Shown here: piece after piece, positions 32,949-40,601 of the stretch | Numbering within the stretch: the stretch's first letter is position 1 | Layout: each line of letters opens with the position of its first letter | Origin: Candidatus Enterousia sp. | Lineage (GTDB): Bacteria; Pseudomonadota; Alphaproteobacteria; Rs-D84 | Reading direction: 5' to 3' | Assembly (NCBI GenBank): GCA_045592905.1 | Contig: JAZNVR010000030.1 | Location: forward strand, 6,029 to 70,028 | DNA: 64,000 nt | Position numbers and translations under genes: made by a program | The notes under the pieces: model-generated | The model's input: only the letters and a program-made list of their open reading frames with translations | What the model was told of the DNA's origin: nothing | The model's database searches: none

Positions 32949-32976
32949 AAAAAAATCCCCAGATGGGGATTTTTTT
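32949..32976 (-). terminator. Intrinsic terminator after the 35582->32975 two-gene operon (tcccc/gggga type)
   Basis: The sequence aaaaaaaa-tcccc-agat-gggga-ttttttt. Confidence 0.7.
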
Positions 32977-38270: not shown

Positions 38271-40601
38271 ATGAAAAGGAAATTAGTTTTTCTTGTCGCA
38301 CTGTTTATCGGTGTTGGCATTGCCAACGCTGCTGTTCGTGATGAAAAAACAATTGTACGGACTGCAAATTCCACACTGCAAAGAAGTGCAACATCACGAC
38401 AAAACACAACATCATCCCGATCATTAACCAGTCGTGCAAACACAAAAAACACCACCGCCAGGAAATCTGTATCTTCACGTGGGACACAACGTTCTGCCAC
38501 TGCACGCAGTGCCACAACAAAAACCGCGCAACGTCCCAACCGTCAACAAACATCTGTTGGACGCAGTTCTGCAATAAACATGTCAAACATTGTTGCATCC
38601 CCTGTTCGTGGTTTAAGTATTGCACGTGCATCAAACACCCCCAGCACTACAATTGACCCATCAACAACACTGGGTGCGGATTACACAAAATGTCGTGATG
38701 CATACTTTGCATGCATGGATCAATTTTGTGCTGTTGCAGATGAATCTTATCGCAGATGTGCGTGTTCATCACGTCTGACAACGGTTCAATCCCGCGAACG
38801 TGCATTGGTTCAGGCTGCAGAACAACTGACAGATTTCAAAAATCTGAATTTAGAAGTTATTAACAAAAGTTCCGATGAAGTAAAGGCTATGATTTCTGCA
38901 TCTGTGGGTGAATTGGCACAACAAAACGCCAAGGATACATCAGACAGTGCAAAACAATTATCCGGAATAAATGCAGTATTGGAAAAAACAAAACGTGAAT
39001 CTTTGGCAACCCAGGGTTCTTTGGATATTGCTGGCGATATAAATGAAATATGGTCCACCACCGATTTGGCCGGTGGTGTAAACATATCAAACCTGACGGG
39101 GGAAGCGTTATATAACGCAGTCCACGCCCAATGTGCAGAAATGGTGGATTCAATATGCCCCAGCACAGATGTACGTACAATGATTGTATCTGCGTACGGT
39201 ATGTATATTGAAAATGATTGTTCGTTAATATTAACCGGTCTGGATAAAAAATTAACTGCTGCCAATGCCACAATACGTGATGCGGAATACGAAATGGGCG
39301 ACAGACGACTGGAAAACTATAACGCCCACAATTCAACATCCATTAACGACTGTATTGCCAGGGTACGCATGGACATCACCGCAGATACCGCATGTGGCAA
39401 AGATTATGTTCATTGCTTGGATGTAACCGGTCGCTATCTAAACTATGATACAGGCGAACCAATTTATTCCGCTGAATTTTTCCAACTAAATACACTGACA
39501 TCATTATCCGGTGATTTATTAAAAAATCAAACAAATCGCTTGTTTATTGAACGCTTGAACAGTATGCGTCAATACGCACAAGGCAGTCTGGATACATGTC
39601 GTGATATTGCAGATGATGTATGGGATGAATTTATGCGTCAATCAATCACAGAAATTCACCAAGGACAACAAGAACGAATACGAATGGTCAAAGAAGAATG
39701 TTTAGATGTTGTAAATACATGCTATGACGAACAAAATCAAACATTAAAAGATTTTAGTAACACAGATGAAGCGTTATTATTGGGATCACGATTGGAATTA
39801 TCCGAACAATTATGCAAGGAAAAAATGAACACATGCAGTAATTTATATGGTGGTGGTCCAAACGGTATGGCAGAAATGTTAACCGCAATGCATGACATTG
39901 TCAGTCAACAAATCGCCCAACAATGTTTAATTGCACTGCAAGATTATTCTAAAAAATTATGTGCTGTATCTGGAAAAGATACATTGCATGCATACCCATA
40001 TGGCTGTCGTGCATACACACCTGGGACCCAGGAATATGCGATTAAACCAGAATGTAATAATGCCACCGCAACATCAACCGGTAAGGTTCTGACCAATAAG
40101 GTACAGCGATACACAACCGGCAGTTGTGGGAAACATTATACCTACTGTAACCCTGGATATTATATGGTACAAACAAATAATACGTATACACTGAATTCCG
40201 ACCGAGGAGAAGAGCATGCTAACACCTGCTTAAAATGTCCAGAAAACCATTACTGTAAAGGAGGAGGAACCATTGATGGCACCAAACCACAACTACTTGA
40301 CTGTGGTGCTGATTACGTTGGCAGTTTATATTATAAATTAGCAAATTATGCAAACGAAGTATGTGTCCGCCCATCCAAGGCAGATGAACCATTACCGCAC
40401 GCTGTATTACAAGATATAAACGTTGTAATGGATCAAATACGTGCAGATATGTCTGTTGAATTGGCCAAAGAATGCGAGCGTCTGGGTGGCAAATGGGTAA
40501 CAAACGCATTAAATGAAAATGATACAACAATAAAAACACGACATGCATTCTATTCTGCAACTGGTGCCAATACCCAATGGGGATACTGTGCATATCAATA
40601 A
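38271..40601 (+). CDS. Secreted Cys-rich protein (776 aa), CxDAYxxCMDxFC-head family, with a basic Arg/Ser/Thr-rich N-terminal tract and a eukaryote-like CxxCPxxxYC C-terminal region
   Basis: Signal peptide MKRKLVFLVALFIGVGIANA, R/S/T tract (RSATSRQNTTSSRSLTSRANTKNTTARKSVSSRGTQRSATARS...), head KCRDAYFACMDQFCAVADE, unit ADTACGKDYVHC, and late motifs CNPGYYM...TCLKCPENHYCKGGG and ECERLGGKW. Confidence 0.7.
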   Translation: MKRKLVFLVALFIGVGIANAAVRDEKTIVRTANSTLQRSATSRQNTTSSRSLTSRANTKNTTARKSVSSRGTQRSATARSATTKTAQRPNRQQTSVGRSSAINMSNIVASPVRGLSIARASNTPSTTIDPSTTLGADYTKCRDAYFACMDQFCAVADESYRRCACSSRLTTVQSRERALVQAAEQLTDFKNLNLEVINKSSDEVKAMISASVGELAQQNAKDTSDSAKQLSGINAVLEKTKRESLATQGSLDIAGDINEIWSTTDLAGGVNISNLTGEALYNAVHAQCAEMVDSICPSTDVRTMIVSAYGMYIENDCSLILTGLDKKLTAANATIRDAEYEMGDRRLENYNAHNSTSINDCIARVRMDITADTACGKDYVHCLDVTGRYLNYDTGEPIYSAEFFQLNTLTSLSGDLLKNQTNRLFIERLNSMRQYAQGSLDTCRDIADDVWDEFMRQSITEIHQGQQERIRMVKEECLDVVNTCYDEQNQTLKDFSNTDEALLLGSRLELSEQLCKEKMNTCSNLYGGGPNGMAEMLTAMHDIVSQQIAQQCLIALQDYSKKLCAVSGKDTLHAYPYGCRAYTPGTQEYAIKPECNNATATSTGKVLTNKVQRYTTGSCGKHYTYCNPGYYMVQTNNTYTLNSDRGEEHANTCLKCPENHYCKGGGTIDGTKPQLLDCGADYVGSLYYKLANYANEVCVRPSKADEPLPHAVLQDINVVMDQIRADMSVELAKECERLGGKWVTNALNENDTTIKTRHAFYSATGANTQWGYCAYQ

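Follow-up and report, generated by a model that had tools for sequence, protein, structure and literature searches.

Three paralogous cysteine-rich exported proteins flanking infA in Candidatus Enterousia: a lineage-specific family of putative disulfide-stapled helical envelope proteins

Organisation and conservation of the infA locus

In the window analysed here, a stretch of 64,000 nucleotides from Candidatus Enterousia sp. (Rs-D84 lineage), the gene infA, which encodes translation initiation factor IF-1 and is a conserved landmark, not a member of the family described below, sits between two gene units of opposite orientation (Table 1): on the minus strand B729 is followed by A861, both pointing away from infA, while on the plus strand C776 lies 3' of infA and is followed by E253, the gene of a small exported cysteine-rich partner. 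Because the gap between B729 and the downstream A861 is of 21 bp and free of terminators, B and A are probably one operon; E253 begins 6 bp downstream of C776, and these two genes probably form another, ending at the terminator that closes the C-E unit. Altogether, A, B, C and E253 span about 8 kb, near 1% of a genome smaller than 1 Mb. The window also encodes PBP1a, LpxI, outer membrane β-barrel proteins, an autotransporter and a SurA-like chaperone, and the organism is therefore a diderm endowed with a periplasm.

Table 1: Position of the genes and sequence features discussed in the text (window coordinates; aa, residues of the protein).
Feature	Position	Strand	Remarks
Terminator-like hairpin	32949..32976	-	closes the B-A unit
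A861	32975..35560	-	ORF, A-type paralog, 861 aa
A C-terminal tail CTESEPVENCHDIQM	32978..33022	-	...C-x8-C-H-D-I-Q-M
Cys unit 2 of A	34163..34228	-	aa 445-466; unit-1 HMM match, iE 1.5e-5
Cys unit 1 of A	34715..34780	-	aa 261-282; C-x6-C-x6-CG-x-[DN]-[FWY]-x2-C
A head motif CYDAYYGCMDAFC	35354..35392	-	aa 57-69; head HMM match, E 7e-19
B729	35582..37771	-	ORF, B-type paralog, 729 aa
B C-terminal tail CQSQPVCEDINM	35585-35620	-	
B Gly/Ala-rich hydrophobic hairpin	35633..35749	-	aa 675-713; kept in the B-type representatives listed
Cys unit 1 of B	36833-36898		matches unit 1 of A
B head motif CRDAYRECMDEFC	37415..37453	-	aa 107-119; head HMM match
infA	37914..38156	+	translation initiation factor IF-1
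Terminator-like hairpin	38164-38180		between infA and C776
C776	38271..40601	+	ORF, C-type paralog, 776 aa
C head motif CRDAYFACMDQFC	38691..38729	+	aa 141-153; head HMM match
Cys unit 1 of C	39351-39416		matches unit 1 of A
E253	40608..41369	+	small exported Cys-rich partner; probable true start 40659
Terminator	41368-41392		closes the C-E unit
I286	46484..47344	+	20 Cys; hhalign probability 79.7%, E 1.5e-5, 67 columns
J512	47355..48893	+	distant headless relative; Cys unit HMM E 1.7e-8
Cys unit copies of J512	47643-47702; 47856-47915		two copies

About 73 of the 80 species loci share the gene order E253-C-infA-B-A, and the orthology of A, B and C is strictly 1:1:1; even in a distant relative (45, 55 and 44% identity for A, B and C, respectively) the neighbourhood is kept as A-B-secG-infA and C-E, differing by the insertion of secG and the inversion of infA. 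Median dN/dS values are 0.20 for A, 0.16 for both B and C, 0.10 for infA and 0.30 for E253; the diversifying selection expected of variable antigens is absent from these whole-gene values, the helical core being the best-conserved part and the spacers and some loops being variable. All genomes examined have A, B, C and E253; given this, the fixed order around infA and the purifying selection, the four genes are very probably important for the bacterium.

Sequence, predicted fold and distribution of the family

BLASTP matches A to B at 4e-47 (27% identity over 484 aa), A to C at 1e-20 (about 400 aa) and B to C at 9e-12, values well outside chance; the similar stretch measures 250-480 aa and is not confined to the 13-aa head motif. 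A, B and C are hence not low-complexity sequences but genuine paralogs, members of a cysteine-rich family that is conserved and folded. Each N-terminus reads as a typical Sec signal peptide with an A-x-A-like site at its end, after which a variable spacer of low complexity extends for 30 aa in A, 85 aa in B and 120 aa in C; in A861 the signal peptide occupies aa 1-26 and the head region, after the short spacer, aa 57-81, and in C776 the spacer is basic, S/T/R-rich and disordered. The head, whose consensus C-x3-[YFW]-x2-C-M-D-x-F-C is common to the three proteins, is followed in the three-way alignment by the collinear blocks DCK.F, NKY..G.C and CG.[DN][FWY]..C, and the second cysteine unit of A is an internal copy of the first. 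A sequence-only reading of the same DNA had described three large paralogs flanking infA divergently, with a common head placed between a signal peptide plus variable spacer and collinear downstream blocks, and had located the heads to within a few bases of the positions given in Table 1.

A six-frame scan with C-x6-C-x-[DN]-x2-C yields one further match in the whole window, outside any family member. The idea of the head as a mobile module was discarded, as the head HMM, run on a set of 10,231 ORFs taken from the window and 80 related loci, retrieves A/B/C-type proteins only (the head-like segment CSRANLTRCLDSAC of I286 gives no match). The paralogs diverge towards their C-termini. C776 has the same head and core without seven of the core cysteines of the A/B type, and its C-terminal region is cysteine-rich, unlike those of A and B; both A and B end in D-[IV]-x-M-COOH, as do at least 76 of 80 A orthologs and 68 of 74 B orthologs. 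The hydrophobic hairpin of B resembles a glycine zipper and might anchor the protein in a membrane; the Pfam profile Gly-zipper_Omp matches the isolated 67-aa C-terminus of B below threshold (E 0.18, 12.2 bits, the cutoff being 25). The B segment GGLAAGASAGTMVSPGWGTAIGGVVGAVGMGVMGAMSGG equals in composition and GxxxG periodicity the Gly-zipper_Omp/YMGG proteins, the SlyB/Pcp lipoproteins and the Rickettsia 17-kDa antigen (PF13488/PF13441), differing from them in that it is C-terminal, belongs to a non-lipoprotein and is found in B only.

According to AlphaFold2, A861 (pLDDT 82) would be helical from residue 55 to 530, and C776 (pLDDT 76) disordered over residues 1-127 and helical over 130-563; in the A861 model the helical cysteine core, reaching about aa 535, is followed by a mixed α/β region and by a C-terminal β-sheet (793-860). 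The head is predicted as a helix (55-69 in A), a short loop and a second helix (77-81) running into the long helical core; the folded, cysteine-rich nature suggested by the sequence-only reading is retained, not so the self-contained knot, a helix-loop-helix being present in both models. The C-terminal β region of A was considered as an outer-membrane anchor or autotransporter and rejected, its strands being highly polar and without Pfam match; the protein ends in D-I-Q-M, in place of the terminal aromatic β-signal expected of outer-membrane β-barrels, and the Foldseek matches of the A model to secretin and levivirus coat sheets are all at E>1.

Neither Pfam (E<=0.1) nor NCBIfam reports a family for A, B or C, and the same databases return no informative domain for the neighbours and the nine longest relatives; no toxin or enzyme domain is found in the three proteins or fused to the longest family members. 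PDB sequence searches with profiles built from 3 and 81 sequences give no match even at E<=10, and Foldseek finds nothing at E<=1e-3 for the A and C models against PDB or for the A model against BFVD; in these same resources the head corresponds to no named domain. The family is unnamed and has no counterpart in Pfam, NCBIfam or PDB, which, together with the confident AlphaFold models, makes it a candidate new domain family. Among the scored candidates the family numbers 1261 clusters at 90% identity; its representatives at 50% identity are 960, of which 432 have E<=1e-30. The best 80 genome loci come from Ca. Enterousia or from uncultured Alphaproteobacteria/Proteobacteria (Pseudomonadota) MAGs of animal and human guts, apart from three titled Rickettsiales, Bacteroides fragilis and Muribaculaceae, and the distant members with a source name are likewise Alphaproteobacteria or Proteobacteria MAGs; as far as seen, the family is restricted to the order Rs-D84 (Candidatus Enterousia), whose members have genomes below 1 Mb, are described as non-respiring gut fermenters without a respiratory chain and are presumed to rely on a partner organism (PMC12306168).

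Further cysteine-rich proteins are encoded nearby. The family of J512 is related to the A/B/C family by hhalign (probability 94.6%, E 6.7e-8, 184 columns), and I286 is possibly a further distant relative. E253, with nine invariant mature cysteines in 65 of 65 sequences, was rejected as a family member, because hhalign aligned its signal peptide only.

Cysteine pairing and the question of metal binding

Among 144 diverse representatives, 15 cysteines are invariant and C57 is nearly so. The post-head cysteine total is 36 in 78 of 79 A orthologs and the cysteine total is 36 in 73 of 74 B orthologs; even numbers prevail over odd ones in the diverse representatives, both in the A type (83 to 10) and in the B type (13 to 0). 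In the C type the counts within Enterousia climb in twos (29, 31, 33 ... 39) and are odd in 57 of 62 sequences, but the diverse representatives are mostly even (18 versus 7), so that a conserved free cysteine is not a family-wide property. Cysteines are also lost in pairs: 377 and 422 are missing together from the same five representatives, 452 and 478 from two, 529 and 535 from three, and residues 268, 336, 389, 404 and 459 are all absent from exactly the same 28 C-type sequences. Each of these few cases of co-loss may represent one single evolutionary event. A gap of seven between consecutive cysteines occurs 10 times out of 35 in A and 8 out of 35 in B, about one being expected, by our own estimate, for random placement at 4.5% cysteine. 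Finally, 19 related loci carry, some 6-8 kb from the A gene, the gene of a DsbA-like protein with a membrane anchor (PF01323 match at 3e-20; active site FSCP[YF]C); no DsbA gene is present in the 64-kb window.

The features proper to a disulfide-bonded exported protein are all found: even cysteine numbers, pairwise loss, a signal for export and, in relatives, an oxidoreductase gene. Of the two options left by the sequence-only reading, disulfide or metal binding, the former is favoured on account of the cysteine parity, the pairwise co-loss, the heptad (i/i+7) spacing on predicted helices and the DsbA-like gene nearby in relatives. The proteins appear to contain about 18 disulfides, and the even counts suggest that these bonds are formed within molecules and not between them. 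In Enterousia, the odd cysteine number of the C type and the nine mature cysteines of E253 looked complementary; a possible intermolecular C-E disulfide is nevertheless not favoured, both for the parity of the diverse C-type representatives and for the locus L081, in which the C-type protein has 70 cysteines and the E-type still nine.

The alternative that the conserved cysteines bind zinc, copper or Fe-S clusters, making A, B and C metalloproteins or metal stores with a metal site formed by the head C-x6-C-M-D-x-F-C plus C-x-C, is very unlikely in our estimate. The conserved Met and Asp beside the head cysteines would suit such a site, even totals are compatible with four-cysteine sites as well, and the habitat, an anoxic and reducing gut, joined to the lack of a respiratory chain, makes a classical DsbB-linked oxidation questionable (PMC12306168). 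Against these points, the cysteines are scattered along some 800 aa, most of them in i/i+7 pairs on predicted helices and not in CxxC/CxxH clusters, their loss goes by twos and not by fours, His is absent from invariant and near-invariant columns, Sec export implies that the membrane is crossed unfolded and cofactor-free, a DsbA-like oxidoreductase is encoded in related genomes, and no metal-binding family is matched in Pfam or NCBIfam.

As to the pairing of the disulfides thus favoured, the head contains five cysteines, an odd number, and at least one of them must pair outside it; the spacing indicates that C57/C64 are most likely stapled to C190/C198, and from spacing and the few co-loss events we infer two further staples, 261/268 with 336/343 and 377/384 with 415/422. 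In such a putative "twin CX6C" staple, a C-x6-C on one face of a helix would bond to the C-x6-C (or C-x7-C) of an antiparallel helix. The arrangement would match that of the CHCH proteins (twin CX9C and CX3C, substrates of Mia40), in which a helix-loop-helix is stapled by two parallel disulfides, one "inner" and one "outer", with two cysteines at fixed spacing on each helix face. The spacing is 9 or 3 in CHCH proteins and 6 (or 7) in the presumed pairs of A/B/C, and the CHCH motif occurs once in about 100 aa, whereas the A/B/C motif would occur at least three times in bacterial Sec-exported proteins of 730-860 aa; with C-x6-C/C-x7-C spacing and no Pfam match at E<=0.1, A, B and C do not belong to the CHCH proteins.

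Possible role in the cell envelope

The reading that we prefer, with a probability of roughly 0.55, is that A, B and C are old paralogs of lineage-specific, Sec-exported, disulfide-stapled helical envelope proteins, probably structural. The mature proteins would consist of four parts: a variable, disordered and often basic A/T/S/R-rich spacer; the head helix; a core of about 450-480 aa of long helices; and a paralog-specific C-terminal module, that is, a soluble β-sheet in A, a glycine-zipper-like hydrophobic hairpin in B and a variable cysteine-rich region in C. Intramolecular disulfides would be made in the periplasm by a DsbA-like oxidoreductase. The head would supply the N-terminal side of the first staple, fastening the N-terminal helix to another helix some 130 residues further on and closing a long helical arm with a variable acidic insert. 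The outcome would be rigid, protease-resistant helical rods, whose role would most likely be structural. Along with E253, encoded on the presumed C-E transcript, they may belong to an assembly outside the cytoplasm, in the periplasm or on the surface, of a bacterium that depends on a partner, with B at least serving as anchor. The actual pairings, the cellular location, the assembly and the function are all inferred, the function being argued from context and analogy.

Analogies may be drawn with several known systems, none of which includes the family. The Helicobacter Hcp proteins (Sel1-like repeats) are exported α/α proteins of a gut-associated bacterium, present as multiple paralogs as are A, B and C, and the disulfide-linked helical hairpins would be shared; the A/B/C helices are much longer, the proteins larger and the cysteine spacing different, and no Sel1/SLR match is found in Pfam or NCBIfam for the three proteins. 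The Duffy-binding-like (DBL) domains of Plasmodium adhesins are likewise large, extracellular, all-helical, rich in conserved disulfides, paralogous and typical of a host-dependent organism, but they are eukaryotic, without sequence match to A/B/C either directly or in Pfam, and the only structural hit, 5f3j_B in Foldseek, is not significant (E 3.0, probability 0.05, TM 0.07/0.15); an adhesive role would be speculation. Chlamydial OmcA and OmcB, whose disulfide bonding stiffens the envelope, are again cysteine-rich exported sets of a reduced-genome, host-dependent diderm; the Omc proteins are not known to be helical, and neither Chlam_OMP3 nor Chlam_OMP6 is matched in the Pfam and NCBIfam searches. 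A further difference from Chlamydia is that Rs-D84 retains peptidoglycan synthesis genes, among them PBP1a in the window and RodA/MreB (PMC12306168).

Two other explanations concern where the proteins act. That they are secreted effectors or toxins directed at a host or partner cell, and not parts of the bacterium's own envelope, would fit the extracellular stability typical of disulfide-rich proteins and a neighbourhood with many exported cysteine-rich ORFs, an ankyrin-repeat protein, autotransporters and a VirB11/T2SSE-type ATPase. Effectors usually vary in presence or absence and show diversifying selection; here, by contrast, the 1:1:1 orthology, the fixed synteny with infA and a dN/dS of 0.16-0.20 across a deep divergence, the conserved hairpin of B suggesting membrane anchoring, and the lack of any toxin or enzyme domain, even in the longest family members, make such a role unlikely, despite the view that Rs-D84 bacteria are obligate symbionts or parasites (PMC12306168). 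Rather doubtful, in turn, is a purely periplasmic scaffold, for instance spacers or tethers between inner membrane, peptidoglycan and outer membrane, without contact with the surface or with a partner. Its location is the sole difference from the preferred reading. Sec signal peptides are the only export signals, no outer-membrane targeting signal, lipobox or link to a secretion system having been found for A/B/C; the basic disordered spacers might serve to bind peptidoglycan or LPS; the neighbouring protein L713 joins cysteine-rich repeats of similar kind to an OmpA-like peptidoglycan-binding domain; and strong conservation without hypervariable regions fits an internal structure. On the other side stand the variable loops and spacers, and the fact that periplasmic proteins this large and with some 18 disulfides are, to our knowledge, unusual.

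Returning to the preferred reading of structural envelope proteins, a more speculative extension, to which we assign a low probability, is that A, B, C and E253, perhaps with J512 and I286, build a helical lattice or fibre of a kind not seen before, hetero-oligomeric, made rigid by disulfides and based on a new "twin CX6C" helical fold, which would serve on the envelope as an organelle of attachment or protection. Apart from this, the twin-CX6C staple, if confirmed, would be a bacterial, repeated variant of the twin-CX9C/CX3C principle and could interest designers of rigid helical proteins. Rs-D84/Enterousia bacteria are widespread, uncultured inhabitants of human and livestock guts, whose lifestyle is only guessed at; A, B and C would be natural markers or antigens by which these organisms may be detected, sorted or imaged, and are a first handle on their envelope and on any contact with partner cells. 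The lattice or fibre, if true, would be central to the life that these bacteria, with genomes below 1 Mb, lead on or inside partner cells of the animal gut.

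Gene arrangement around infA

The long ORFs A861, B729 and C776, which flank infA (see the table), are clearly paralogs: in BLASTP, A861 matches B729 with an E-value of 4e-47 (27% over 484 aa) and C776 with 1e-20, while B729 and C776 match each other with 9e-12, and the alignment of the three proteins is collinear from the head, i.e. the C-x3-[YFW]-x2-C-M-D-x-F-C region near the N-terminus, through ~480 residues. The sequence-only reading had described three large paralogs sharing this head, preceded by a signal peptide and a variable spacer and followed by collinear blocks, and the description holds: the head is present in all three, the similarity extends far beyond its 13 residues, and a Sec-type signal peptide (judged by eye) is followed by a spacer of 30, 85 or 120 residues, respectively. 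Beyond the heads, a six-frame scan of the window for C-x6-C-x-[DN]-x2-C returned a single match, in no family member. The spacers are disordered and A/T/S/R-rich (e.g. C776 aa 21-140, DNA 38331-38690); across 119 of them, the short repeated motif [VG][SA]-A-R-[AS]-A ('ARAA', 'ARSA') was counted 278 times, whereas shuffles that preserve composition give 37.8 ± 6.1. The spacer of C776 is strongly basic (20 K+R vs 4 D+E), that of B729 acidic.

Positions of features in the window (the DsbA-like gene lies in a related locus)
Feature	Position	Strand	Remark
Small leucine-rich-repeat protein	14866-15765	minus	
D762	29507-31795	minus	762 aa
Strong hairpin	32949-32976		3' of A861
A861	32975..35560	minus	long ORF, family member
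Head motif of A861	35354-35392		aa 57-69
B729	35582..37771	minus	long ORF, family member
Head motif of B729	37415-37453		aa 107-119
infA	37914..38156	plus	between B729 and C776
Terminator-like hairpin	38164-38180		belongs to infA
C776	38271..40601	plus	long ORF, family member
Head motif of C776	38691-38729		aa 141-153
E253	40608..41369	plus	6 bp past C776; probable start 40659
Hairpin	41368-41392		after E253
G1246	41899-45639	minus	1246 aa
J512	47355..48893		
VirB11/T2SSE-family ATPase	54828-55823	plus	
Autotransporter	59084-61930	minus	948 aa
Example DsbA-like gene	L009 20207-21049	plus	FSCP[YF]C thioredoxin-fold, PF01323 3e-20

The gap of 21 bp between B729 and A861, which contains no terminator, the 6 bp between C776 and the small exported Cys-rich gene E253, and the positions of the hairpins indicate two units, B-A and C-E, diverging around infA; the divergent orientation had been noticed from the sequence. 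The order E253-C-infA-B-A is found in ~73 of the best 80 species loci, the remainder being truncated contigs; since linkage is kept in a relative whose A, B and C proteins are only 45%, 55% and 44% identical (order A-B-secG-infA / C-E), the triplication and the ties to infA and E253 are old. In a distant relative (L081, 8356-9203) infA has the opposite orientation and precedes secG, after which come the B- and A-type genes; all share a strand, and the Cys-rich genes may be co-transcribed there with infA and secG. All three paralogs are retained 1:1:1; the median pairwise dN/dS is 0.20 for A and 0.16 for both B and C, compared to 0.10 for infA and 0.30 for E253, and conservation is highest in the helical core, the spacers and a few loops being variable.

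Predicted fold and cysteine pairing

The AlphaFold2 model of A861 (81-sequence alignment; mean pLDDT 82, 444 residues at 90 or above) is disordered to ~aa 40; in the head, helix 55-69 is joined by a loop to a short one at 77-81. Long helices extend from there to ~aa 530, and a mixed region precedes a polar, five-stranded beta-sheet (793-860). In the C776 model (74 sequences; pLDDT 76), residues 1-127 are disordered and 130-563 helical. Foldseek gave no significant match for either model against the PDB or for A861 against BFVD, a PDB sequence-profile search gave none even at E<=10, and no fused known domain was found in the longest family members. The head is therefore no separate knot but the helix-loop-helix with which a large helical domain opens, and this domain matched nothing in the libraries searched (Pfam, NCBIfam, PDB, BFVD).

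Fifteen Cys (A861 numbering: 64, 69, 79, 81, 190, 198, 217, 261, 275, 282, 343, 384, 415, 466, 646) are invariant in 144 diverse representatives; C57 is kept in 140 of 141, and some ten others are above 90%. The total is 36 in 78 of 79 A and 73 of 74 B orthologs; even counts prevail among diverse A-type (83 even, 10 odd) and B-type proteins (13 and 0), and Enterousia C-type counts run in steps of two from 29 to 39. Losses are joint and fall on identical sets of sequences: 377 and 422 in five representatives, 452 and 478 in two, 529 and 535 in three, and 268, 336, 389, 404 and 459 in 28 C-type proteins. The most frequent gap between consecutive Cys is 7 (10 of 35 in A861, 8 of 35 in B729; ~1 by chance, by our estimate). 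From spacing and co-loss, antiparallel 'twin CX6C' staples may be proposed, pairing 377-422 with 384-415 and 268-336 with 261-343; the five Cys of the head require at least one partner outside it, and 57/64 would be stapled to 190/198 (222/229 in B). Such patterns favour disulfides; that the Cys are instead metal-binding sites is improbable, given their pairwise loss and the absence of any conserved His. Of the 'folded disulfide or metal-binding knot' originally proposed, folding and disulfides are thus favoured, while the separate knot is rejected and metal disfavoured. Disulfides are further favoured by 19 related loci which carry, ~6-8 kb away from the A gene, the gene for a membrane-anchored DsbA-like protein (PF01323, 3e-20; FSCP[YF]C); the 64-kb window has no copy.

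The mature part of E253 has exactly 9 Cys in 65 of 65 orthologs, and 57 of 62 Enterousia C-type proteins likewise have an odd count; these numbers hint at an intermolecular C-E disulfide, but the complementarity breaks down in more distant relatives.

Distant relatives and other exported proteins

The block C-x6-C-x6-CG-x-[DN]-[FWY]-x2-C occurs twice in A861 (aa 261-282 and 445-466) and twice in J512, which the unit HMM (E 1.7e-8) and family-against-family hhalign (probability 94.6%, E 6.7e-8, 184 columns) identify as a distant, headless relative; I286 is possibly another, judging from its hhalign probability (79.7%), while E253 was rejected as unrelated by the same method. B-type proteins conserve near the C-terminus a Gly/Ala-rich hydrophobic hairpin resembling a glycine zipper (profile match sub-threshold, E 0.18). 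In Enterousia, at least 76 of 80 A and at least 68 of 74 B orthologs end in D-[IV]-x-M-COOH (32978-32989 and 35585-35596 in the window), which resembles a conserved tag for recognition, e.g. by PDZ domains; the window also encodes an S41/PDZ protease (397-1779).

J512 and I286 belong to another group of exported, Cys-rich ORFs (45764-53790), along with H190 (PQPK repeats), K919 (CKCK...C repeats; weak cEGF-like match, E 0.02) and, last, L713. This protein combines 'C.C' repeats and Gly-rich hydrophobic segments with an OmpA-like domain at the C-terminus, its sole Pfam match; H190, I286, J512 and K919 match no family. In other genomes L713-J512-I286-G1246 directly follow the A gene, indicating a rearrangement in this window. 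G1246, exported, has sub-threshold, N-terminal ankyrin repeats and a long unannotated remainder, and adjoins the cluster in many related loci (38-78% identity). D762, exported and 7.5% Cys, matches nothing in Pfam or NCBIfam; it has tandem Cys-rich repeats, including a ~130-aa near-exact duplication (...YYADTKQCFC.AL.PRKRVEEKKNPCPET...CNP), and almost none of the related loci has an ortholog. The VirB11/T2SSE ATPase, the autotransporter and the leucine-rich-repeat protein are candidates for further cell-contact functions in a small genome.

Distribution and possible function

The three-protein profile recovered 1261 clusters at 90% identity among scored candidates, none with a Pfam domain and all named, if at all, 'hypothetical protein'; when 1.84 billion representatives were scanned exhaustively with HMMER, 960 clusters at 50% identity emerged (432 at E<=1e-30), and a species-genome collection contains 291 stretches with relatives. 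The best 80 of these, from human, ruminant, horse, chicken, rabbit and other guts, are titled, with exceptions, Candidatus Enterousia or uncultured Alphaproteobacteria/Proteobacteria (Pseudomonadota) MAGs; two are titled 'uncultured Rickettsiales', and two named Bacteroides fragilis and Muribaculaceae (L011, L065) carry the full Enterousia-type gene order and are most likely mis-binned or contaminated public records. Distant members with a source name are likewise Alphaproteobacteria or Proteobacteria MAGs. Genomes of this lineage, the order Rs-D84, measure ~0.75-1.0 Mb and lack respiration and most biosynthesis, dependence on partner cells being presumed (PMC12306168). PBP1a, LpxI, OMP beta-barrels, an autotransporter, a SurA-like chaperone and an S41/PDZ protease in the window indicate a diderm with peptidoglycan and LPS.

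With a probability of roughly 0.55, we infer that A, B and C are rigid helical rods held by disulfide staples, which would build an extracytoplasmic assembly in the envelope. The export signal, the many putative stapling disulfides, the conserved rigid helical core, the strict keeping of three paralogs together with the small gene E253 and, in B, a hairpin that may lie in the membrane point to a core structural envelope component; fold and disulfides are the more secure part, a role at the surface or in partner contact much less so. A purely periplasmic scaffold, differing in location alone, is possible, if unlikely; secreted effectors are more doubtful still, since orthology is fixed at 1:1:1 and selection is purifying.

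The proposed stapled rods resemble in working principle the twin CX9C/CX3C CHCH hairpins, the disulfide-bridged Sel1-like repeats of Helicobacter Hcp and the helical, disulfide-rich DBL domains, and in biological setting the chlamydial Cys-rich envelope proteins, but profile and fold searches place them in none of these, and the head corresponded to no named domain. We rate the proteins as a new, unnamed family inside the broad known class of lineage-specific exported Cys-rich proteins: a large, conserved, confidently modelled and unannotated family of inferred function, carried by a bacterial group that is ecologically common yet unstudied.
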